A stretch of DNA of 64,000 nucleotides from Limisphaerales bacterium. Lineage in GTDB: Bacteria > Verrucomicrobiota > Verrucomicrobiia > Limisphaerales > Palsa-1400. A program made the translations under genes and the position numbers. The notes below the pieces were generated by a model. That model worked only from the letters and a program-made list of their open reading frames with translations. It had not been told where the DNA came from and did not search any database. Shown piece after piece: positions 3,624-60,018 of the stretch. The DNA lies in NCBI GenBank assembly GCA_052139695.1, contig JBKQWF010000019.1:24570-88569 (forward strand). Direction: 5' to 3'. Position 1 is the first letter of the stretch. Each line of letters starts with the position of its first letter.

Positions 3624-4534
3624 TGCTTGCTTCCAACCTTATTGATGGGCGCGCCATCGCCGAAGAAGTTCATCAGGACACTCTCCGGCGTGTGGCAAAC
3701 CTCAAGGCGCATGGCATTCAACCGTGCTTGATCTTTATCCGCGTTGGCGAAGACCCGGCTTCCCGCGACTATGTTGGGATGAAGGAAAAGACCAGCGCAC
3801 GGCTTGGGATCGCTACGCAAACGCACGTTCTGCCGGAGACGACCCGCGAGGAGGAGCTTCTGAAACTCATTGCCCAGCTCAATGGCGGTGCCTCAGTTCA
3901 TGCGATTCTCGTGCAAGCGCCTCTGCCTAAACATATTTCCGAAGCTCACGTTTATGGCGCCGTCTCTCCGGCAAAGGATGTGGACGGCTTTCACCCGGTC
4001 AACGTTGGCAAGCTGATGCTGGGCGATCCCACCGGATTCCGCCCCTGCACGCCCGCTGGGATCCATGAATTGCTGATCCGCTCCGGCGTGGCCATTGCGG
4101 GTGCTGAAGTTGTTATTCTGGGCCGGGGAAACATCGTGGGCAAGCCCATGGCGGCGCTTTTGCTGCAAAAGGCCAAAAATGCGGGCGCCACCGTGACCAT
4201 CTGCCATTCTCAAACTCGCGATGTTGCGGCGCACTGCCGCCGGGCGGACATTCTGATCGCCGCGCTCGGCTCCGCGCAGTTTGTCAAAGCTGGAATGGTT
4301 AAGCCCGGGGCGGTGGTGGTCGATGTTGGAGTGAATCGCATTCCTGATGCGACGGCAAAACGCGGCCTGCGCGTCGTCGGTGATGTTGATTTTGCCGGCG
4401 TCCAGCCCGTTGCGGGCAAAATCACGCCCAATCCTGGCGGCGTTGGGCCGATGACCATTGCCTTGCTTTTTCAAAACACTGTCCGCGCCGCGGAATGCGC
4501 CGCGGGTCTGAGCCCTTCCCCTCAAGCTAATTGA
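3620..4534 (+). CDS. folD: Bifunctional methylenetetrahydrofolate dehydrogenase/cyclohydrolase
   Basis: KDVDGFHP, PCTP, GRGNIVGKP, VVVDVGVNR, TPNPGGVGPMT motifs. Confidence 0.97.
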   Translation: MMLASNLIDGRAIAEEVHQDTLRRVANLKAHGIQPCLIFIRVGEDPASRDYVGMKEKTSARLGIATQTHVLPETTREEELLKLIAQLNGGASVHAILVQAPLPKHISEAHVYGAVSPAKDVDGFHPVNVGKLMLGDPTGFRPCTPAGIHELLIRSGVAIAGAEVVILGRGNIVGKPMAALLLQKAKNAGATVTICHSQTRDVAAHCRRADILIAALGSAQFVKAGMVKPGAVVVDVGVNRIPDATAKRGLRVVGDVDFAGVQPVAGKITPNPGGVGPMTIALLFQNTVRAAECAAGLSPSPQAN

Positions 4535-51181: not shown

Positions 51182-51769
51182 GTGGAAGCCAGCAAAGTTC
51201 TGGCGATTGCCTCCGGCGTCGCCTACACCGTTGCCTATCTCGACTACAACCGCCAAGTCGTTAAGGGCGCGACCAGGCCGAATGGCGCCACCTGGCTCAT
51301 TTGGTCTGTCATCGCGGGGGTGAGCACTACAAGCTATCTGAAGGCGTCAGGGGACGTTTGGAAAAGCGTCATCCCGATCATCAACATCTGCTTGTGCCTG
51401 GCGACATTCGTGCTTGCGGTCAGCCTCAAGAAATTCAAGCAGCCCGACCCGATGGATTTCATTGCTCTCCTCATTGGTGCCATAGCGGTGGTCGTCTGGA
51501 AACAGTACGGCTCCGCGAAATACGCCAACTTAATCGTCCAGTTCGCCATTCTCTCCGGGTTTATTCCCACATGGCGAGCGATCAGGGCAGACCCGTGGTG
51601 TGAACAACCAAGGCCGTGGTGGCTATGGACGACAGGTTATTTCCTGGCGGGCGTCGTGGTGCTACTGCGATGGAACGGCCAATGGTTTGACCTTGTTTAT
51701 CCTGTCAACTGCGCCCTCCTCCATTCATCCGTGCCGCTTGTGGGAGAGGCGAAACGACCTGCATGCTAA
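51182..51769 (+). CDS. Hypothetical multi-TM membrane protein
   Basis: Y-x-x-Y-x-x-QVVKG-x-x-RPN-x-ATWLIW, IPTW-x-x-x-x-x-DP-x-x-E-x-x-x-PW. Confidence 0.7.
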   Translation: MEASKVLAIASGVAYTVAYLDYNRQVVKGATRPNGATWLIWSVIAGVSTTSYLKASGDVWKSVIPIINICLCLATFVLAVSLKKFKQPDPMDFIALLIGAIAVVVWKQYGSAKYANLIVQFAILSGFIPTWRAIRADPWCEQPRPWWLWTTGYFLAGVVVLLRWNGQWFDLVYPVNCALLHSSVPLVGEAKRPAC

Positions 51770-54123
51770 TCTCGTGCGACCGGCCCCTCCAGGCGGAATT
51801 CGTCCGGATACAAACCGAAATCACCCACCGGAATTCGGGCAAAGCCTGGGCGGTTCAGGAGTGGGTTGCCGGGCTTCAGCGCTGTATCGCCGTGCGCCAA
51901 GACTGTGTTTTCTTCAGTCTCCATTGCTTTGGACGGGTGGCGGAGCAACTCGCCGCACCCAATCAGCAAATTGCGATAGACTGCGTTACTGGTGACATTC
52001 TCCTTGAGCGTGGCGAGGGCGGGATAGCGGCGCAGGTAAAGGGCGGCGTCAATCTGGTTGTTGGTCAGGTATGGCGCGGTCCATTCCCGCCAATGTTCCG
52101 GTTCCCAGGAACCGATGCTGATGGCGGCGGCGCATTCGATAAACAAATTGTTGTCAATGACGTTGTCCTTGCCGCCATTGATTTGCACGCCGCCAAAGCC
52201 GTCCTTTCCGGTGGAACAACGCTGCAGGACGTTGCCATAAATCAGCGTGCCGGGAATGGCGTCGTCCAGCCGGATGCCGGCCCGGCCGCATTTGGCCGTC
52301 ATGCCGTTGCCTTGGCCGCCGATGTCGTGCCAATAGTTAAAACGATAGACGTTGCCGCGGAAGGTCGGATCGCCAAACATGTCCACGCCGCCTTGATCGT
52401 CGGATTCGAGGACGGCGTTAAACACCTCGTTATATTCGATGATAATGTCGTTGCCGCCGACGTTGAGGGCACTGCTCAAGACGTCGTGCAGGCGGTTGTG
52501 GGCGATGCGGATGCCAACTCCTCCAAGGGCAATGGCGGGGGTGTAAGTGTGATCGATGCGGGAGAGGTCGTGAATATCGCAATTCTCGACGAAATGCTCC
52601 GCGGGGGCGAGTGTCTTGCGGTCGCCGCCATGTAGCGCCACGCCGCCGCGGCCCATGGAGTAAATGTCGCAGGAGAGCAGGCCGTGCTTCTGGCCCCCCG
52701 TAATGGTGATTCCCGTTCCGGCGAACTTCCGCACCACGCAACCGGCGAAGAGGCAGTTGGAGCCGCCAGTCACATGGAGAGCGTCATGGCAGCCTAATTC
52801 CCAGGTGAGGCGTTCAAAGCGGACGTGCGAGGCGCCCTCGAGGTTGACCATTGGCTCGGCCAGGAGTGAGAGTTCCATCGATGCCTTCCCCGGATCGGAC
52901 GGTGGATAGAAAAACAAGCGCAGGCTTTGCCGGTCAAGGTAATACTCGCCGGGGCTGTCCAGTTCCCAAAGCGCGTTGACGGCGTAAAAATGCGCGCCGA
53001 TGCTGTAGCCGTACGTGTGCCACGGTTGCGCCAAGGTGATAAGGCGCTTTTGCGTGTCAATACTCTGGACGCGCTCGTAAGAATCCGCCCAGTCCCAAAA
53101 CCAGTAACCATAGAGAAGCAGGTCCGGTTCGCCGGCCCAGCGGGCAGGCCGGTCGCCTTCGTAGAAAAACTTCCCCACTTTGCTGCCTTCGCGGTCGTAA
53201 CCTTTCGTGCCATCCTTGACCGCGACATCGGCGACGCGCAAAAAGCCTTCATTCGGGCCGCGCGCCAGGGCCATTGCGCGGCCATTGAAAAACAACTCGT
53301 GGGCCGGATGGGTCTTGAATCCATGTCCGCTGGCAAACCCGCCCAGCTCCAATGGGAGGAGATTGGTGATGCCCGCCGTTTTCAGGTCCAACGCCAAGAC
53401 CTTTTTGGCCATGTTTGCCGGAAGGCGCTTCAAGATGGCCGGGTCAGCAACAGGTTGAAAGCCGTGAAGCGGAACCCCGCCGATGAACCGAGGCTTTTCG
53501 CCCGGGGCGGCGCGGTAGATGACCGGCGCTTGTTCCGTTCCCGAATCCTCCGCCGTAAGCGTGAGGGTATGTGTGACCTGATAATCGCCGCCATGCACGA
53601 GGATAACCGCGCTTCCCGCGGGAACGGAGCCACTTTTCCGCAATGACCGAATCCGGTCGCGCGCTCCTTCGAGCGAGGCCAGAGGCCGTTCCGCCGTGCC
53701 GGGGTTTGAGTCGGCGCCGCTGGGAGAGACATGCAGCGTCAGGCCAGGGGAGGGGGTTGGCGGCAAGCGCAAGCGGTTGGCATTCGTATCGCGCGCCGGC
53801 AAACCAGCCTCGCGCCGCTCAATTTCCTGGATGCGCTGACGAGCCTCGGCGACGTGGTGGTCCATCGCGTCCGGCAAGTTGATTACTTTGACCAGTTCCG
53901 CTTTTGCCGCGGCCAGTTGTCCCGCTTGCAGCAGCAAGTCCGCCGATTTGAATTGCGCGATGGCCTGCAGGGCCGGAGAAGTCTGGGCTGGTTTCACCTT
54001 GGGCGCCGTGGCGGCGCTGGCATGAACGCAGGCCGCCAAAAGCGCTGTTATCGTGAAGAGAAAACGGGCGACAGCCCGACCGCGTTGGCGCGCGATCGCG
54101 AAAGCGCTTCCAGCGAATTGCAT
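51766..54123 (-). CDS. Secreted right-handed parallel beta-helix protein (putative glycan-active enzyme)
   Basis: Signal peptide, LHVSPSGADSNPGT-x-x-x-P, LDSPGEYY, repeated IAHN/IEYN/YRFN beta-helix coils. Confidence 0.88.
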   Translation of the reverse strand: MQFAGSAFAIARQRGRAVARFLFTITALLAACVHASAATAPKVKPAQTSPALQAIAQFKSADLLLQAGQLAAAKAELVKVINLPDAMDHHVAEARQRIQEIERREAGLPARDTNANRLRLPPTPSPGLTLHVSPSGADSNPGTAERPLASLEGARDRIRSLRKSGSVPAGSAVILVHGGDYQVTHTLTLTAEDSGTEQAPVIYRAAPGEKPRFIGGVPLHGFQPVADPAILKRLPANMAKKVLALDLKTAGITNLLPLELGGFASGHGFKTHPAHELFFNGRAMALARGPNEGFLRVADVAVKDGTKGYDREGSKVGKFFYEGDRPARWAGEPDLLLYGYWFWDWADSYERVQSIDTQKRLITLAQPWHTYGYSIGAHFYAVNALWELDSPGEYYLDRQSLRLFFYPPSDPGKASMELSLLAEPMVNLEGASHVRFERLTWELGCHDALHVTGGSNCLFAGCVVRKFAGTGITITGGQKHGLLSCDIYSMGRGGVALHGGDRKTLAPAEHFVENCDIHDLSRIDHTYTPAIALGGVGIRIAHNRLHDVLSSALNVGGNDIIIEYNEVFNAVLESDDQGGVDMFGDPTFRGNVYRFNYWHDIGGQGNGMTAKCGRAGIRLDDAIPGTLIYGNVLQRCSTGKDGFGGVQINGGKDNVIDNNLFIECAAAISIGSWEPEHWREWTAPYLTNNQIDAALYLRRYPALATLKENVTSNAVYRNLLIGCGELLRHPSKAMETEENTVLAHGDTALKPGNPLLNRPGFARIPVGDFGLYPDEFRLEGPVARD

Positions 54124-54195
54124 GGCTTCACCTTTCATTGTCTCAAAGGGATTGCAAGGCTAATTGCGGTGCGACTTTGCCCCAGCCCACGGCTG

Positions 54196-54225
54196 TTTCG
54201 TCACGCTTAATCGGTGGTTCATCAC
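54196..54225 (+). promoter_or_regulatory. Candidate LytTR operator 1
   Basis: TTTCGTCAC-N12-GTTCATCAC (21-nt period). Confidence 0.5.
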
Positions 54226-54309
54226 TTGGCGTTGGAGTTTGCTGCGCATGCAGGCTTGGATTAGGCGTGTTCCTGCGTTATGAGAACTCTAGCCAATGAT
54301 TTGAAATCT

Positions 54310-54459
54310 GGGCGTCGGCAGCAACGTCCTACCACAATGCGGTGGGGCGACACTGCCGCGCCGCCCTAATATGAGTGGTGCGATTAAAACTGTTGGACAA
54401 GGTAGGGCGCGCACTCCGTTGCGCGCCTTCCCGGCGGCCAGCGGAGCGGCCGCCCCACC
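54310..54459. repeat. GTAG/GTGG-type REP-like cluster
   Basis: GGGCGTCGGCAGCAACGTCCTACC, GGTGGGGCGACACTGCCGCGCCGCCC, GGTAGGGCGCGC...GCGCGCC, GGCGGCC...GGCCGCCCCACC. Confidence 0.7.
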
Positions 54460-54540
54460 CTAAAATTCACCGACACTTTAATCGCACCCAAAGGTGAGAG
54501 ACAATTTGACTGGTTTTTCAATTGAGAATCGACTGATGCT

Positions 54541-55956
54541 TTGACCACCGGAACCGAAAACCCTGCGACAGAAGCGCCGCGCATGCCAGCCCAGCACCGG
54601 CGGTGGTGGGTTTTTTTTCTCGCCTGGACTGTATTTGTGGCGCTGGCAGTGTGGTGGTTGAAGGCGCGCGGCGAAATGCCGCAGTCCTATTCCAGTTGGT
54701 TTGGCGGTGGAAGCGCAACGGCAGGCACCACCCTGCTTGAGCGGGCCGGCAATTGGCTGAAATTGGCCGATCTGAACTTCCGCCGGATTTATCCATGGAT
54801 TTTGCTGGCGCCTTACGTGGTTTGGCTTGGCTCGCGCTTTCTTTTGGAACGCGGCCAGTGGAGAACCGGCATTCCGGCTCATTTGCTTGGGTGCGTGCTT
54901 TTCGCGATGGGCTGTCATGCCGTAGGCGAGTATGCCGATTGGTGGCGTCCCATTTTCATTTCGGTTTCAACCGTTGGAGGGGCGGATTTAACCGGAAAAC
55001 CAGGTCAAACCAATCAATTGACAACGACGAATTTCACGGTGGTCACGGGCAGCGCGCGGCAAGGCGCCATGTCCGCTGGAGGCGGCGGCTTCGGTCGTAT
55101 GAGCGGCGGCGGCGATGGGTTTCAGGCTGGGGCTGGAGCCGGTGTCGTTCTCCCGGAAGGAGTGGGCTTTAGCCGAAGGATTGTTTTGCGGCAACGCTTT
55201 TTGCCTGGCCCGCTCGATCTGCTGGACATGTTCGCTTATGCCAGCCTTGTTGGCATCGTGCAAACCGTCCAGTTCCATGGCCGGGTCAGAGAGCGGGAAA
55301 AGCGGGCGGCGGCGTCGGAGGCGCAACTGACCAAAGCGCGATTAGACGCGCTCCAGGCGCAGTTGCATCCGCACTTTTTGTTTAACGCGCTCAATGCCAT
55401 TTCGACTCTGCTGCGGAGTGACACTCGCGCGGCGCAGGATGCACTTGCCTCGTTTAGTGAACTGTTACGCCTGGCGCTTTGCCACTCAACGCATCCGGAA
55501 GTCACGCTGCGCGAAGACTTGGAGTTTCTCACGCGTTACATTGAAATTCAGCAAACCCGCCTGGGCGAACGCCTGCGCTTCGAACAAATCGTCGCGCCGG
55601 AGTTCCTGGACTGCCTTGTCCCAGCGCTCCTCCTGCAACCGCTGGTGGAAAACGCCATCCGCCACGGCATCGAACCTTCTCCCAGCCCCGGCGTGGTGCG
55701 CGTCGTGGTCCATGCGCCGGCGGAGCGTCTCGTCTTGACAGTGGAAGACAACGGCGCCGGCTTTTCCAGCAAGGAACAAGAGCGCCACGATGGCGTTGGC
55801 ATCGGCCTGCAAAACCTCAGGTCGCGCCTGGAAACACTGTACGGGGCGGCGCAGAGAATTGAATTTGGCCCGCGGCCGGAGGGCGGTGTGGCCGTTACCG
55901 TGGAGATTCCGCTGCGCCACGCGCCCCTGCCGCAGCCGGCCAATGCTGTGTCATGA
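54541..55956 (+). CDS. LytS/YpdA-type sensor histidine kinase
   Basis: TM region, LQAQLHPHFLFNALN, LQPLVENAIRHG, VEDNGAG, GIGLQN. Confidence 0.94.
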   Translation: MTTGTENPATEAPRMPAQHRRWWVFFLAWTVFVALAVWWLKARGEMPQSYSSWFGGGSATAGTTLLERAGNWLKLADLNFRRIYPWILLAPYVVWLGSRFLLERGQWRTGIPAHLLGCVLFAMGCHAVGEYADWWRPIFISVSTVGGADLTGKPGQTNQLTTTNFTVVTGSARQGAMSAGGGGFGRMSGGGDGFQAGAGAGVVLPEGVGFSRRIVLRQRFLPGPLDLLDMFAYASLVGIVQTVQFHGRVREREKRAAASEAQLTKARLDALQAQLHPHFLFNALNAISTLLRSDTRAAQDALASFSELLRLALCHSTHPEVTLREDLEFLTRYIEIQQTRLGERLRFEQIVAPEFLDCLVPALLLQPLVENAIRHGIEPSPSPGVVRVVVHAPAERLVLTVEDNGAGFSSKEQERHDGVGIGLQNLRSRLETLYGAAQRIEFGPRPEGGVAVTVEIPLRHAPLPQPANAVS

Positions 55957-56717
55957 GAATTCGCGCGATGATTGTCGATGATGAGCGGCTGGCGCGGGAG
56001 GGAATTAAAGCCTTTCTCGCCGAAGAAGCCGATGTGGAAATTGTGGGCGAATGCGCCGATGGCGAGGCGGCCGTCCGCGCCGTGGAAGAGCACCGTCCTG
56101 ATCTGCTGTTCCTGGATGTGCAAATGCCGCGCCTTAACGGCTTCGACGTTCTGGAGGCGATCCCGCCCGGGCTGATGCCGCTGGTGATTTTTACCACCGC
56201 CCATGACGAACATGCGATTCAGGCTTTCGAGGTCAACGCGTTGGATTATTTGCTCAAACCGTTCAAGCAAGCTCGCTTTAAAATGGCATTGCAACGAGTC
56301 CGAGAACATTTGACAGCGCGCACTGCCGCCGGAGCGGACCCGCGCCTGGCATCGCTTTTGGCTGGTTTGCAGGCTCCGGCAGGTGGAGGACTGAGAATTT
56401 TGGTCAAGTCGCCCGATCACATTCTGTTTTTGAAAGCGGAGGAAATCGACTATATCGAGGCGGCGGGCAATTACCTGGTCCTTCACGCTGGCAAAGACCG
56501 GCATATTGTGCGGGAGACGATGGCGGCCATGGAAGCGCGGCTCAGCCCCGCGGGCTTCATGCGCGTCAGCCGTTCTGCCATCGTTAACCTGAACCGCATC
56601 GGCCAATTGGAGCCGTTGGTCGCGCCAGGAGAATTCTGTTTGATTCTGAAGACTGGCGCGCGCCTGAACATGACCTGCAGTCTGTCAGAATTGCAGCGGC
56701 GGATGGGGGCGGCCTGA
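55953..56717 (+). CDS. LytTR family response regulator
   Basis: IVDDE, LFLDVQMP, AFEVNALDYLLKP; LytTR domain YIEAAGNY...FMRVSRSAIVN. Confidence 0.95.
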   Translation: MRIRAMIVDDERLAREGIKAFLAEEADVEIVGECADGEAAVRAVEEHRPDLLFLDVQMPRLNGFDVLEAIPPGLMPLVIFTTAHDEHAIQAFEVNALDYLLKPFKQARFKMALQRVREHLTARTAAGADPRLASLLAGLQAPAGGGLRILVKSPDHILFLKAEEIDYIEAAGNYLVLHAGKDRHIVRETMAAMEARLSPAGFMRVSRSAIVNLNRIGQLEPLVAPGEFCLILKTGARLNMTCSLSELQRRMGAA

Positions 56718-56724
56718 ATGAGAT

Positions 56725-56792
56725 ATTTGGGCGTTGCGGCAACAACGCCCTGCCTCAAGAATGGTGGGGCGGCGCTGCTGCGCCGCCCAAAT
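56725..56792. repeat. GTAG/GTGG-type REP-like pair
   Basis: ATTTGGGCGTTGCGGCAACAACGCCCTGCC...GGTGGGGCGGCGCTGCTGCGCCGCCCAAAT; same arrangement as 54310-54370. Confidence 0.7.
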
Positions 56793-56858
56793 GAGAGTTG
56801 GTTCGTCGGCTTTCGAATTCTGCCGCAATCCACCGGTTTTCTTCACCGCTCATTGCCA

Positions 56859-56888
56859 CCTCATCCCAATCCACCCCCGCCTCGTCAC
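56859..56888 (+). promoter_or_regulatory. Candidate LytTR operator 2
   Basis: CCTCATCCC-N12-CCTCGTCAC (21-nt period), same TCRTCMC core as operator 1. Confidence 0.5.
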
Positions 56889-56962
56889 ATGAGACCACCG
56901 CTGACCCGCGCCATGCCTTACAAGTTTCGCATGAAAACGAAGCACAAATCACAGGCAGAAAT

Positions 56963-57928
56963 ATGAAGACAAGACACATTGGCATCGCCCTTGCCGCCGT
57001 CGCCGTCGCGGGGCTTTGGTTTGGCCGGCTGGCGTGGCGCGCCCATCAGAATCTGGTGACGCTCCATGCCCGCAATATGCCACTGGCGGAGGTGGTGCGC
57101 TCATTGCGGCGGCAAACCTGGGAAAGGATTAAATTTGACAAGTCCATGAACGCGAAAATCACCCTCAATGTCAAAGACGCTCCGCTTGCGGCAGTTCTGG
57201 ATTTGGTGGCGGACCGGGCCGGCGCCCGATGGCAAAAAACCTGTGCCGTCGGCGCTTCCGATGGAGGGATGGCAAAGTTGGAGGCTGTTCTTGATGGCAT
57301 CGAGAAATTGGCCGAAGCCGGGTGGACAAACCTCGCGCCTCGTTTCCCTGACTTGGCGTTAGAAAATCCGCCTGGCTCCATCATAACCCAGAGCAGCATG
57401 GGCGGGGGGGCGGCGCCAGAGCACATTGAGGGAAAGCCCGGCATGATGCTCCATCGTGCGCTGCTTCCGGGTAGGATTTCCCCAAGTGGCAAAGCCGGTG
57501 AAGCGAGGGGTGGCGCGAGAATGGTCACCATTGGACCCGGCGGCACGATGGACCAATGGAGTTCTGAGCGCCTGGTTATGGAAAGCAGTTTGCTGCCTCT
57601 GCTGGGCGCTCAACTGCCTGAGGAGGCCACTCCGGAAACGGCGGCCCATGCCGCCTCCGCGGTCCACGGTCGAAGCCGCTTGTACTACGCGCTGGAAAGG
57701 TCCCCGTTTGACGGGGGACACATGTCGGGGGGCCGGGGGGCCTTGCCCGGTCCACGCAAGGCCGGGCTGGTTCACCCCGCGCCCGGTGACGCTTTCGCGA
57801 ACATGAAGCAGACGATGCAGCAGGGGAGATTGCGGGAGTTGAGCCGTTCGCCGGAGGCACAAGTCGAACGCGCTCGGCAACATGGCGCCAACAAGATGCG
57901 AATAGAAACCGACGTAGAGAGCAATTAG
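56963..57928 (+). CDS. Membrane-anchored hypothetical protein with a secretin-N/STN-like segment
   Basis: One TM, then VTLHARNMPLAEVVRSL...ITLNVKDAPLAAVLDLV. Confidence 0.65.
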   Translation: MKTRHIGIALAAVAVAGLWFGRLAWRAHQNLVTLHARNMPLAEVVRSLRRQTWERIKFDKSMNAKITLNVKDAPLAAVLDLVADRAGARWQKTCAVGASDGGMAKLEAVLDGIEKLAEAGWTNLAPRFPDLALENPPGSIITQSSMGGGAAPEHIEGKPGMMLHRALLPGRISPSGKAGEARGGARMVTIGPGGTMDQWSSERLVMESSLLPLLGAQLPEEATPETAAHAASAVHGRSRLYYALERSPFDGGHMSGGRGALPGPRKAGLVHPAPGDAFANMKQTMQQGRLRELSRSPEAQVERARQHGANKMRIETDVESN

Positions 57929-57956
57929 AGCGGCATAAACCAAGGAAATCAAAAGC

Positions 57957-58664
57957 ATGAAAATATTCTTCTATAAATTTCAGAACACGGCCTTCAGCCG
58001 CGAGAGCGAAGAATCCTCAGGCCGAGGCCGTTTTGGCCATGCGTTCACGCTTCTTGAATTACTGGTCGTAATCGCAATCATCAGTGTTTTGGCTAGCCTG
58101 CTGTTGCCTGCGCTTGCCCGGAGCAAGGACCAGGGACGCAATACCGTGTGCGTGAGCCAGCTTCGCCAATTGGGGATCGCCACGCGCGTTTACGCGGACG
58201 ACAATAACAACCGCCTCCCGACGGCGGAACTGCTGCCCACGTCGCCGGTCAACCCTACGAATGTGTTGCCACGCATTTGTGACGTGCTGGGGCCTGAAGT
58301 GGGCAAATCCAACGGTGGCACGAACAGCTCTCCTGTATTCGATTGCCCGGCAGATGCCGAAGGCCGGTTCGCCGCCGAGGGTTCCAGCTACGAATGGAAC
58401 ACCGATTTAAACGGGCATCGCATCGACGAAACAACCTCGGAGACCATGCATTTCGCCTTGGCCTGGGCAGGGCCGATAGAGGGACCGGGGCCGTCCGGAA
58501 CCAACGTCACGGTCACCAATGGTACAATTCAATTGACATTTGAGCCGAGCACGACGCCGCTTTTTACCGATTACGACGATTTTCATCCCCGTTCCACCGG
58601 CTCCGGCAAAAACGTGGTGTTCATGGACGATCACGTGACGCCGCTCCAGTTATCAGACTTTTGA
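57957..58664 (+). CDS. Prepilin-type N-terminal cleavage/methylation protein
   Basis: [25 protein letters not shown]; C-x-SQLRQLG; NVVFMDDHV. Confidence 0.92.
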   Translation: MKIFFYKFQNTAFSRESEESSGRGRFGHAFTLLELLVVIAIISVLASLLLPALARSKDQGRNTVCVSQLRQLGIATRVYADDNNNRLPTAELLPTSPVNPTNVLPRICDVLGPEVGKSNGGTNSSPVFDCPADAEGRFAAEGSSYEWNTDLNGHRIDETTSETMHFALAWAGPIEGPGPSGTNVTVTNGTIQLTFEPSTTPLFTDYDDFHPRSTGSGKNVVFMDDHVTPLQLSDF

Positions 58665-58798
58665 ACGAAGTGCGCCGGGCGTGCCTCTTAAATTTGTGGG
58701 GTGTACTTTTTCGACTGCTCCCAAGGCGGGTGCAATATTGAGTTCACAACGCTCCAATTTTGTTCAAGACTACGCGATCGTGAGTAAAATATTATGTT

Positions 58799-60018
58799 TT
58801 GCCTGTTTCATGGCGGTGCCATTGCTGGTTTTGGCAAACGGCCCTCGAGAGCATAGCTCCGCTGAGGTATTACTGGTCGTCAACGAGCGCAGCCCGATTT
58901 CCGAGGCCATTGCCGAGGATTACGCGGGCAAACGGCATGTCGCCAATGTTCTCGCGGTGCAATGCCAGGATTCCGCCTTGAGCACGCGCAGTGAAACCAT
59001 CCCTCTGGCGGATTACCGGCAAGCGATAGAGTCGCCCATTCACGGGTTTTTGGCGGAGCATACCAACATCGAGTTTATCGTCTTGACGAAGGGCATTCCC
59101 ATCCGCATCACTGGCGTGGATATGGGAAGTTGCGATGAGAAGAGCCACGAGCCGGAAAGTATTCGCGGGCATCCATCAGTTGATAGTTATTTGAGCGCCT
59201 TGGATTATACGAATCTTCCGACGATTAAAATCCATATCGCCGGGTCGGGGGCCATCGGTTGCGCGTATTCCAATCGTTACTGGAATGCGGCGGAGCCTTT
59301 TTCCCATGCAAAATTTGGCGGCTATCTTGTCACAAGGCTGGATGGATACACTGAGGCCGACGCAAAAGCTCTGGTCACCCGTTCCTTAGACGGGGAACGG
59401 AATCTTTCACGTTATCTCAAGGAAGGCAAAGTTCTGCTGGACGTGGAACCTGTTTTCGGTTTGGGGGATAAAGCAACACAGCCCGGCCCCATTACCACCA
59501 CAAATATTCCGGCGGAATCTGCCTGGAGCGAATTCAATGCGGATATGTGCCATGCCGCCGATGTTTTGACCAGCCGCGACATCCCGGTGGAACTGGATTT
59601 GACGCCGACGTTCATTGGCGGACGATCCAATTTGCTCGGTTATTTTTCGTGGGGCAGCAATGACGAGCGCTCATGGAAGAGCAATGACTGTTACACGCCG
59701 GCCGCATACCTCAGCCTGTTTTTCGCGCCGGGCGCGGTATCCGACACCGCGGTTTCCACCAGCGCGCGGACTTTTTTGCCGACGCACGGCGGGCAATCGC
59801 TGCTGGTGGATTTGATCGCGCATGGGCTGACGGGCGGGAAAGGATACACCGATGAACCGTTGCTCCAGGCGATCGCCTCGCCGACCATTGTATTTGACAG
59901 ATATACCGCGGGATACACGCTGGCCGAAAGCTTTTACGCCGCCTCCCATTTTGTTTGCTGGGAGGACGTGGTCATCGGCGACCCGCTGTGCTGTCCCTAT
60001 TTAAAGCGCGCCCAATAG
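58799..60018 (+). CDS. TIGR03790 family protein
   Basis: LLVVN...S-x-AIA-x-DY, GYLVTRLDGY, YFSWGSND, GYTDEPLL, TLAESFYAAS, VIGDPL; start approximate. Confidence 0.88.

Follow-up and report, generated by a model that had tools for sequence, protein, structure and literature searches.

Predicted operators of a REC-LytTR regulator on both sides of its own operon in a soil verrucomicrobium

Are the direct repeats that lie on both sides of a kinase-regulator operon in this Limisphaerales genome the operators of the regulator encoded between them, and which genes would it control? Published LytTR regulators bind imperfect direct repeats of 8-13 bp that are ~12 bp apart (PMC4064291), and their sites have been described as 9-11 nt repeats with an 11-13 nt spacer (PMC4847170). 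For the 64-kb window analyzed here (the window being the whole stretch of DNA under study), the initial annotation had described two intergenic sites on the plus strand with the common core TCRTCMC and identical N12 spacing, a description borne out by direct reading of the sequence.

The locus and its direct repeats

The features of the locus, in order along the window, are the following.

54175..54183, plus strand: possible weak third (distal) unit CTTTGCCCC, exactly one 21-bp period before the first unit of the upstream site
54196..54225, plus strand: upstream site, predicted operator TTTCGTCAC-N12-GTTCATCAC, ahead of the kinase-regulator operon (units at 54196-54204 and 54217-54225, 12-nt spacer)
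54256..54284, plus strand: candidate sigma-70-like promoter TTGGAT-N17-TATGAG of the kinase-regulator genes, suggested by conservation
54400..54465, no strand assigned: dispersed REP-like repeat that separates the promoter region from the kinase start
54541..55956, plus strand: sensor histidine kinase
55953..56717, plus strand: response regulator
56728..56795, no strand assigned: a second REP-like dispersed repeat, past the regulator stop and ahead of the downstream site
56838..56846, plus strand: possible weak third (distal) unit TTTCTTCAC, exactly one 21-bp period before the first unit of the downstream site
56859..56888, plus strand: downstream site, predicted operator CCTCATCCC-N12-CCTCGTCAC, ahead of the STN-like and prepilin genes (units at 56859-56867 and 56880-56888, 12-nt spacer)
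56919..56924, plus strand: -10-like box TACAAG, putative promoter element
56963..57928, plus strand: predicted target gene 1, encoding a membrane-anchored protein whose periplasmic domain (residues ~30-125) is of the STN/N0 fold
57957..58664, plus strand: predicted target gene 2, prepilin-type pseudopilin-like protein

Both sites are imperfect direct repeats whose 9-bp units share TCRTCMC, which is the repeat structure of LytTR operators (at least two units of 8-13 bp). The upstream site is located between a divergent beta-helix gene (51766-54138, minus strand) and the kinase gene. The downstream site follows the stop codon of the regulator gene (56717) and precedes the STN-like gene, which starts at ATG 56963. 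The core of the first REP-like repeat has ~45-70 copies in the genome and the second repeat ~40-60; the orthologous spacers are without the first, and the second corresponds to a gap in the alignment of orthologues. A search of Rfam returned nothing relevant, the sole match of the second repeat being at chance level.

The kinase, which starts at TTG 54541 or ATG 54583, has a membrane N-terminus followed by PF06580 His_kinase and HATPase_c domains (Pfam, 3.4e-24 and 5.9e-12), and its orthologues are 52-63% identical over full-length alignments. The pair had been called LytS/LytTR, and this name holds insofar as a PF06580/LytS-family kinase is coupled to a LytTR regulator; the kinase is not a LytS orthologue, as the LytS 5TM sensor domain (5TMR-LYT) was not found in it with Pfam. 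The regulator consists of a receiver and a LytTR DNA-binding domain (Pfam, 9.6e-25 and 3.4e-15), and the receiver holds all of the phospho-acceptor residues (DD 9-10, D55, T82, and K102). Among curated families the nearest was BtsR at 159 bits (cut-off, 246), and the LytR model gave 112 bits (cut-off, 375), so that the pair, whose kinase also lacks the 5TM domain, does not qualify as a LytSR-lrgAB type. A PDB sequence search with the regulator gave receiver-domain matches only, with no LytTR-domain structure among the best 60. The genome has just two LytTR genes, this one on contig C19 and the other on contig C155.

Homologues of the STN-like protein, a member of an uncharacterized family, are all annotated "hypothetical," and the Pfam STN match (E = 7e-4) falls below the cut-off. 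Its AF2 model has a pLDDT mostly above 85 for residues 31 to 120, and Foldseek matched this model to an anti-sigma STN domain (4m0h) and the PilQ N0 domain (4ar0) with an rmsd of 1.5-1.9 A over ~60 residues (E values of 0.01-0.05). The start at ATG 56963 is backed by a nearly invariant M1 in 31 homologues. The prepilin-like protein carries the Pfam N_methyl motif (N-terminal methylation motif) and N-terminal matches to NCBIfam GspG/ComGC, and its gene followed the STN-like gene in 33/33 loci examined.

Conservation and genome-wide rarity of the sites

The PF06580 kinase, the REC-LytTR regulator, the membrane-anchored STN/N0-fold protein, and the prepilin-like protein form a four-gene cassette that is also present in four other genomes of the family (G006, G009, G004, and G022) and, outside the family, in at least 11 further genomes of the order. 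Conservation in orthologous loci had been proposed as a check on the sites, and both were indeed retained in 4/4 family loci and in relatives elsewhere in the order, their period (21 bp), strand, and position being unchanged amid diverging flanks. The upstream site was conserved in the four family orthologues plus eight loci of other families, relatives in the family and the order have the downstream site 42-107 bp ahead of the STN-like gene, and the motif was found on both sides of the regulator operon in at least 12 genomes. In alignments of the family orthologues, the invariant columns upstream of the kinase were all confined to the block of repeats, comprising both units, three positions of the spacer, and the following TT, and those between the regulator and the STN-like gene fell mostly in the motif, with the remainder in the -10-like box or directly behind it.

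Twelve nucleotides separate the units at both sites and at nearly all orthologous sites, with a single 13-nt exception (G364a), and the spacer thus lies within the range of LytTR operators (11-13 bp, period of ~21 bp). An equivalent of the third unit, TCGCCCC-N14-TCGTCAC/TCATCCC, is present in G006 and G022, third units occur at the same phase in other genomes too, and three-unit arrays with the 21-bp period precede the STN gene in G221, G175, G330, G409, G259, and G364. Taken together, 13 upstream and 17 downstream sites give the consensus YYTCRTCMC-N12-NYTSRTCAC, and a third unit is often present. At 15 loci from other families, 16/17 matches of at least 16 bits were on the operon strand in the two expected windows, which make up 3.5% of positions and in which ~0.7 matches would be expected by chance (binomial P of ~7e-23). 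The same motif and two-site layout were apparently also present in some Acidobacteriota loci.

The motif co-occurs with the encoded LytTR regulator, as is expected of a LytTR operator. All genomes with a motif-bearing STN/pilin locus have a regulator orthologue of at least 62% identity, and the motif was absent at the STN/pilin loci of 12 genomes in which the best regulator match was at most 50%. In G175, G106, and G259 the motif-bearing locus is unlinked to the regulator, and in G213 the orthologue is present and the site at the STN/pilin locus is degenerate. Paralogous kinase-regulator pairs (45-50% identity), including the second LytTR system of this genome, have an analogous TTGTCCC-N14-TTGTCCC at the same place, and since the half-site is similar, cross-binding by the second LytTR regulator may occur.

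Within the window, TCRTCMC-N14-TCRTCMC occurs in just these two places, compared with none in 100 shuffles, and the whole 7.6-Mb genome has 6 such places against ~1.3 expected per spacing; as the two sites themselves had served to define the pattern, such counts carry little weight on their own. Two weight matrices were therefore of interest that were built solely from sites of other genomes and with which 15.2 million positions of this genome were scored. The upstream site ranked 1 genome-wide with both matrices (26.8 and 27.1 bits), and the downstream site, which is the weakest in the family, ranked 4 (19.8 bits) and 5 (21.1 bits), so that the genome-wide frequency, likewise proposed as a check, is not that of background. 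Other top matches were inside ORFs of at least 380 aa or in a four-copy repeat at contig ends, and a wider regulon in this genome was rejected on these grounds; the two matrices gave no further convincing intergenic site. The candidate regulon put forward by the initial annotation is thus narrowed to two local promoters, and the predicted regulon of this genome is local.

A match at C17:18376 was considered as a third operator or as the missing upstream region of the C155 paralogue, and was rejected, the contig ends being without overlap. It is an array of four to six TTTCGTCNC units ahead of a small gene whose paralogues (C51 and C261) carry different TTCAAC iterons, and the array probably represents unrelated mobile-element iterons.

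Promoter geometry, proposed mechanism, and other readings

The candidate promoter of the kinase-regulator genes is kept as TTGGAT/TTGGCT-N17-TATGAG/TATGAA in G006, G009, and G022 and takes the form TTGAAA/TTGAAC-N17-TATGAA/TAAGAA at G221, G330, and G409. The distance from the upstream site to the putative -35 varies between genomes, from ~18 to 52 nt. At the downstream site, the -10-like box lies 30 nt after the proximal repeat with no -35 between them, the box is identical and at the same 30-nt distance in G006, G009, and G022, and an A at +32 is kept in 17/19 anchored sites. This geometry, with a fixed distance to a -10-like box and no -35, would be that of activator-dependent promoters. Known LytTR operators are located shortly before the promoter under their control, at about -80 to -40. 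It is conservation that points to the promoter elements, since a strict sigma-70 consensus scan of the region called no promoter. A sigma-54 promoter downstream of the downstream site was rejected by eye, as the GG/GC spacing was off by one and not conserved.

The data show that the sites exist and are almost unique genome-wide, that relatives retain their sequence, spacing, strand, and position, and that they occur together with the regulator. We consider it very probable that the REC-LytTR response regulator encoded next to them (55953-56717) uses the two repeat arrays as its operators. The original proposal, that this regulator acts through them on its own locus and on the STN-like and prepilin genes, is supported by the conservation, near-uniqueness, and co-occurrence of the sites. 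That the regulator binds, in which direction it regulates, which promoter elements are used, and what signal is sensed are inferences from the same sequence data. The PF06580-type membrane kinase would phosphorylate the regulator at D55 in response to a signal that probably comes from the envelope, and regulator protomers would then bind head to tail to two or three 9-bp units (YYTCRTCMC/NYTSRTCAC) 21 bp apart. As this spacing equals two helical turns, all units would be presented on one face of the DNA. Since the proximal unit of the downstream site is 30 nt before a -10-like box that lacks a -35, the regulator bound there would most likely recruit RNA polymerase and switch on the STN/N0-domain protein and the prepilin-like protein. 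The upstream site, ahead of the conserved sigma-70-like promoter of the kinase-regulator genes, would most likely serve autoregulation, which is probably positive.

Conserved repeats of this type could also be promoter elements for another factor, either the second LytTR regulator on C155 or an unrelated protein, in which case the neighboring regulator would not be the binder. The similar half-site of the paralogous LytTR family and the three genomes in which the motif-bearing STN/pilin locus is away from the regulator are consistent with this, but the motif follows the orthologue group, being absent at the STN/pilin loci of the 12 paralogue-only genomes, and occupies both flanks of the regulator operon in at least 12 genomes. 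Moreover, the 9-12-9 head-to-tail layout is specific to LytTR domains (PMC4847170). We therefore regard another binder as improbable.

It is more improbable still that the upstream site belongs to the divergent beta-helix gene and not to the kinase-regulator operon: that gene is absent from all orthologous loci, and in G006, G004, and G022 the gene upstream of the kinase is co-directional, yet the site is present and neither its strand nor its spacing from the kinase promoter region has changed, even though in the divergent spacer of this genome the site is just 58 nt from the beta-helix start codon. Least credible of all is that the matches have no regulatory role, arising by chance or as part of a dispersed repeat or mobile element. 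The core pattern was indeed fitted after the fact, REP-like dispersed repeats are present in both spacers of this genome, and the C17 array resembles mobile-element iterons. Against this, the REP-like repeats stand apart from the sites, and the orthologues, all of which have the sites, lack these repeats; neither the ranks of the sites with independent matrices nor their enrichment by position and strand fits a chance origin.

Relation to known LytTR systems and significance

The operator reading introduces no new principle: the layout is that of classical LytTR sites, found here in a new lineage, and the half-site recalls that of AlgR. As at AgrA P2/P3, ComE, PlnC/PlnD, VirR, YpdB at PyhjX, and BtsR/YehT at yjiY, at least two imperfect ~9-bp direct repeats with a 12-bp gap are found just upstream of a (here predicted) activator-dependent promoter, and, as with AgrA, ComE, and others, the kinase-regulator operon adjoins its target and is itself preceded by a site (PMC4064291, PMC4847170). 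The half-site, TTCGTCMC, differs in sequence from the AgrA, ComE, and YpdB motifs, and the verrucomicrobial host, the STN/N0-fold and pseudopilin-like targets, and the frequent three-unit arrays distinguish these sites from known LytTR operators. LytSR-lrgAB and BtsSR-type cassettes also pair a PF06580 kinase of the LytS family with a LytTR regulator and have the genes under their control (here predicted) directly downstream, but the present targets are unrelated to lrgAB or pyruvate transporters, and the 5TM sensor domain of LytS in LytSR-lrgAB has no counterpart here.

AlgZ(FimS)-AlgR of Pseudomonas aeruginosa likewise pairs a PF06580-type kinase with a LytTR regulator, and AlgR, which controls the fimU-pilVWXY1Y2E prepilin operon, also has prepilin-type proteins among its output (PMC4064291). 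The published AlgR 9-mer, CCGTTCGTC (PMC4064291), agrees with the proximal half-sites of the upstream site at 7/9 positions (GTTCGTC) in G006 and G004 (GGTTCGTCAC) and at 6/9 in this window (GGTTCATCAC). Minor pilins feed back on FimS-AlgR (PMC5979040). The systems differ in that AlgR sites are often not 12-bp-spaced direct repeats (PMC4064291), in that the nearest curated model for the present regulator is BtsR, below its cut-off, and in that the target is one pilin-like gene plus an STN-domain gene, with no minor-pilin set. AlgR-like synteny was not seen in the Xanthomonadales relatives looked at, L130 and L152, which are without a hemC neighbor, a result that says little about orthology to AlgR. 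A speculative and rather unlikely extension would make the cassette the verrucomicrobial counterpart of the FimS-AlgR circuit: a cross-phylum LytTR subfamily with an AlgR-like TTCGTC half-site, dedicated in this order to a closed feedback loop in which the membrane kinase monitors how much of its own products, the STN/N0-domain protein and the pseudopilin, is present in the inner membrane or how far they have been assembled there.

In this soil verrucomicrobium, the locus appears to be a bacterial switch of an ordinary kind, though a well-supported one. Its two-component family is uncharacterized and widespread in soil Verrucomicrobiota, and this family is now linked to a conserved STN/N0-fold and prepilin-like gene pair that is itself functionally uncharacterized. 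A precise predicted operator, YYTCRTCMC-N12-NYTSRTCAC with two or three units, and a defined two-promoter regulon can now be tested, and the motif can be used for target prediction in relatives, including unlinked targets (G175, G106, G259, and G364) and apparently some Acidobacteriota loci. If the feedback loop were to prove true, it would provide the first regulatory handle on the very abundant, functionally uncharacterized prepilin-like proteins of Verrucomicrobiota and Planctomycetota.

Direct-repeat pairs around the kinase-regulator genes

Two pairs of direct repeats, one ahead of a kinase gene (site 1) and one ahead of an STN-like gene (site 2), had been put forward in the initial annotation as operators of the response regulator encoded at 55953. 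Their sequences, N12 spacing and plus-strand orientation were confirmed exactly in the window, and each is accompanied by a weaker third unit at the 21-bp period. The features of the region are as follows.

51766-54138, minus strand: beta-helix protein gene
54175-54183: weaker third unit of site 1
54196-54204 and 54217-54225, plus strand: site 1, TTTCGTCAC-N12-GTTCATCAC, read from the sequence
54256-54284, plus strand: putative promoter TTGGAT-N17-TATGAG, conserved, 3' of site 1
54541-55956, plus strand: membrane histidine kinase gene (PF06580 His_kinase and HATPase_c domains)
55953-56717, plus strand: response regulator gene, complete receiver domain (D55) and LytTR domain
56838-56846: weaker third unit of site 2
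56859-56867 and 56880-56888, plus strand: site 2, CCTCATCCC-N12-CCTCGTCAC, read from the sequence
56919-56924, plus strand: putative -10-like box TACAAG
56963-57928, plus strand: membrane-anchored protein gene, weak STN match
57957-58664, plus strand: prepilin-type protein gene (prepilin N-terminal methylation motif)

The gene coordinates on either side place both pairs in intergenic spacers, as had been claimed. The pattern originally proposed, TCRTCMC-N14-TCRTCMC, matched only the two sites in the window (none in shuffled sequence) and gave six matches across the 7.6-Mb genome, where about 1.3 would be expected; since it had been fitted to these two sites, the counts were not used as evidence.

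The genes had been described as a LytS/LytTR pair. The LytTR identity of the regulator stands. A LytS/LytR assignment fails on both sensor domain and model score: a domain search found no 5TM LytS domain in the kinase, and the LytR model score was insufficient. Among curated models BtsR was the nearest to the regulator, with a score below the BtsR cut-off. No homologue of the STN-like protein carries an annotation other than hypothetical. Its AlphaFold model (31 sequences) was confident at residues ~30-125, which matched an anti-sigma factor STN domain (4m0h) and the PilQ N0 domain (4ar0) with an rmsd of 1.5-1.9 A across ~60 residues and weak E-values (0.01-0.05), so that the label "STN-like" appears reasonable. 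The gene after the pilin gene (58681-60018) encodes a TIGR03790-family product (E 7.6e-40), and its place next to the cassette is not conserved in relatives.

Conservation in the family and genome-wide scans

The four-gene cassette (kinase, regulator, STN-like and pilin genes) recurs in four further members of the family, the genomes G006, G009, G004 and G022, with regulators 67-86% identical to that in the window and varying genes outside the cassette. Both sites were kept in all four, with strand, spacing and position unchanged. When the kinase-upstream spacers were aligned, the invariant columns all fell within the repeat block (both units, three inter-unit spacer positions and the TT that follows), and in the regulator-STN spacer they were mostly motif, the remainder lying in or just past a box ~30 nt downstream.

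Large dispersed REP-like GC-rich hairpin repeats, with ~40-70 copies in the genome, occupy both spacers of this genome only. They are absent from the orthologous spacers and are therefore no part of the sites. One (54400-54465) separates the putative kinase promoter from the kinase start and makes the 5' leader ~230 nt longer; the other (56728-56795) lies between the regulator stop and site 2. The sequences before and after the first insert, TATGAGAACTCTAGCCAATGATTTGA (54279-54306) and ATTGAGAATCGACTGATGCTTTGA (54513-54543), resemble each other and a single copy in G006, TATGAGAACACCGGTGCTTTGA, and may be a diverged duplication that arose at repeat insertion.

A matrix built from the eight sites of the four relatives only was scanned over the whole of this genome (15.2 million positions) and ranked site 1 first (26.8 bits) and site 2 fourth (19.8 bits). 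With a second matrix of 24 sites, again excluding this genome, the ranks were 1 (27.1 bits) and 5 (21.1 bits). The remaining high-scoring matches were within ORFs of at least 380 aa or in a repeat at contig ends, apart from one non-coding array of TTTCGTCNC units before a small gene on contig C17. This array (C17:18340-18435, outside the window) has 4-6 TTTCGTCNC/TTTGTCNC units at 21-23 bp spacing, and its gene is truncated at the contig end. The gene's paralogues (C51:27630 and C261:9540) encode ~130-aa proteins preceded by different iterons, TTCAAC, and the array was therefore rejected as a LytTR regulon site; it looks like an unrelated mobile-element or plasmid-type iteron module. On this basis, the predicted regulon in this genome is local and consists of two promoters.

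Distribution across the order and the wider subfamily

Of 401 sampled genomes of the order, 73 had an STN-like and pilin gene pair, and the pilin gene followed the STN-like gene in 33/33 loci examined. The first-family matrix was applied to 15 loci of other families at a cut-off of at least 16 bits, the expected windows being kinase-upstream or STN-upstream on the operon strand. Sixteen of the 17 matches fell in these windows on that strand. The windows cover 3.5% of positions (binomial P ~7e-23), and the genome-wide background rate predicts ~0.7 matches. The seventeenth was a duplicate site 3' of the pilin gene at a second STN/pilin locus of one genome (G364). That locus (L073, G364:C717) has no adjoining kinase-regulator pair and carries near-identical sites at 4429 (STN-upstream) and 6330 (after the pilin gene), which suggests local promoter duplication and a multi-locus regulon in G364. 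Three-unit arrays with the 21-bp period occurred at many sites.

Wherever a genome had a motif-bearing STN/pilin locus, it also encoded a regulator orthologue of at least 62% identity. In three such genomes (G175, G106 and G259) the orthologue was on a different contig from that locus, which argues that the site travels with its target genes and that the factor acts in trans. No motif was found at the more distant STN/pilin loci of 12 genomes whose best regulator match was at most 50%. In G367 and G306 the regulator orthologue is followed by a three-unit site and a pilin gene. The sole unclear case was G213, where the orthologue is present yet the site is degenerate. At one locus (L063, G070:C24) kinase residues ~9-100 run directly into regulator residues 37-251, apparently by internal deletion; the upstream site there keeps a high score (29.5 bits), and ahead of the STN gene a weaker repeat pair is readable that scores under the 12-bit threshold for listing.

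In paralogous kinase-regulator pairs (45-50% identity) an analogous site, TTGTCCC-N14-TTGTCCC, lies directly behind the regulator stop or ahead of the kinase. The only other LytTR system of this genome, on contig C155, has such a site and the same architecture but different target genes. There (L026, reverse strand), CCACTTGTCCC-N12-GTTTGTCCC lies ~50 bp past the stop of a regulator of 49-51% identity and ~75 bp upstream of a gene for a secreted 470-aa protein, with a 943-aa membrane protein next. Several Acidobacteriota loci (regulators 45-48% identical) likewise share the motif and two-site layout with other target genes. At six loci from Acidobacteriota and other MAGs (L084, L089, L090, L102, L105 and L120; regulators 44-48% identical), the same TTCRTCMC-N12 motif lies past the regulator stop, and L084 and L090 have it ahead of the kinase as well. 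Three-unit arrays occur at some of these loci, and unrelated genes lie downstream, for cytochrome-c-like, TonB-receptor-like and large secreted proteins. The half-site and architecture thus belong to a broad subfamily, and these comparisons suggest a LytTR subfamily with a conserved half-site spanning several phyla.

Promoter geometry and relation to known LytTR operators

When 19 STN-upstream sites were anchored on the promoter-proximal unit, an A at 32 nt downstream of this unit was conserved in 17, and in the window it falls within the TACAAG box. No -35-like sequence was found between the proximal unit and the -10-like box in the anchored sites. This arrangement, with a fixed -10-like box and no -35, would be the layout of activator-dependent LytTR promoters. 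At the kinase-upstream site, the distance to the TTGGAT-N17-TATGAG-type element differs by genome (~18, 30 or 48-52 nt), so its mode of action is less clear than that of the downstream site; we infer autoregulation. A strict consensus scan of the region made no promoter call, and both promoter elements are therefore placed solely by conservation.

Published LytTR regulators bind imperfect direct repeats of 8-13 bp, ~12 bp apart (PMC4064291), or, in another account, repeats of 9-11 nt that are separated by 11-13 nt and lack a common consensus (PMC4847170). The window shows the same layout, in agreement with the original reading of LytTR-type repeats. The AlgR 9-mer is CCGTTCGTC (PMC4064291); the proximal half-sites of the kinase-upstream sites match it at 7 of 9 positions in G006 and G004 (the core GTTCGTC) and at 6 of 9 in the window. 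AlgZ/FimS-AlgR is likewise an activator of a prepilin operon, and minor pilins modulate that system (PMC4064291, PMC5979040); the likeness is one of mode of action and output.

Conservation, matrix ranks, position and co-occurrence with the regulator support both repeat pairs as predicted operators of the adjacent LytTR regulator, which would control its own locus and the STN-like and prepilin genes as first proposed. They would be classical LytTR operators, already known in kind, the lineage and the targets being new. The evidence is solid and the surprise moderate, and the result helps to predict targets of this regulator family.
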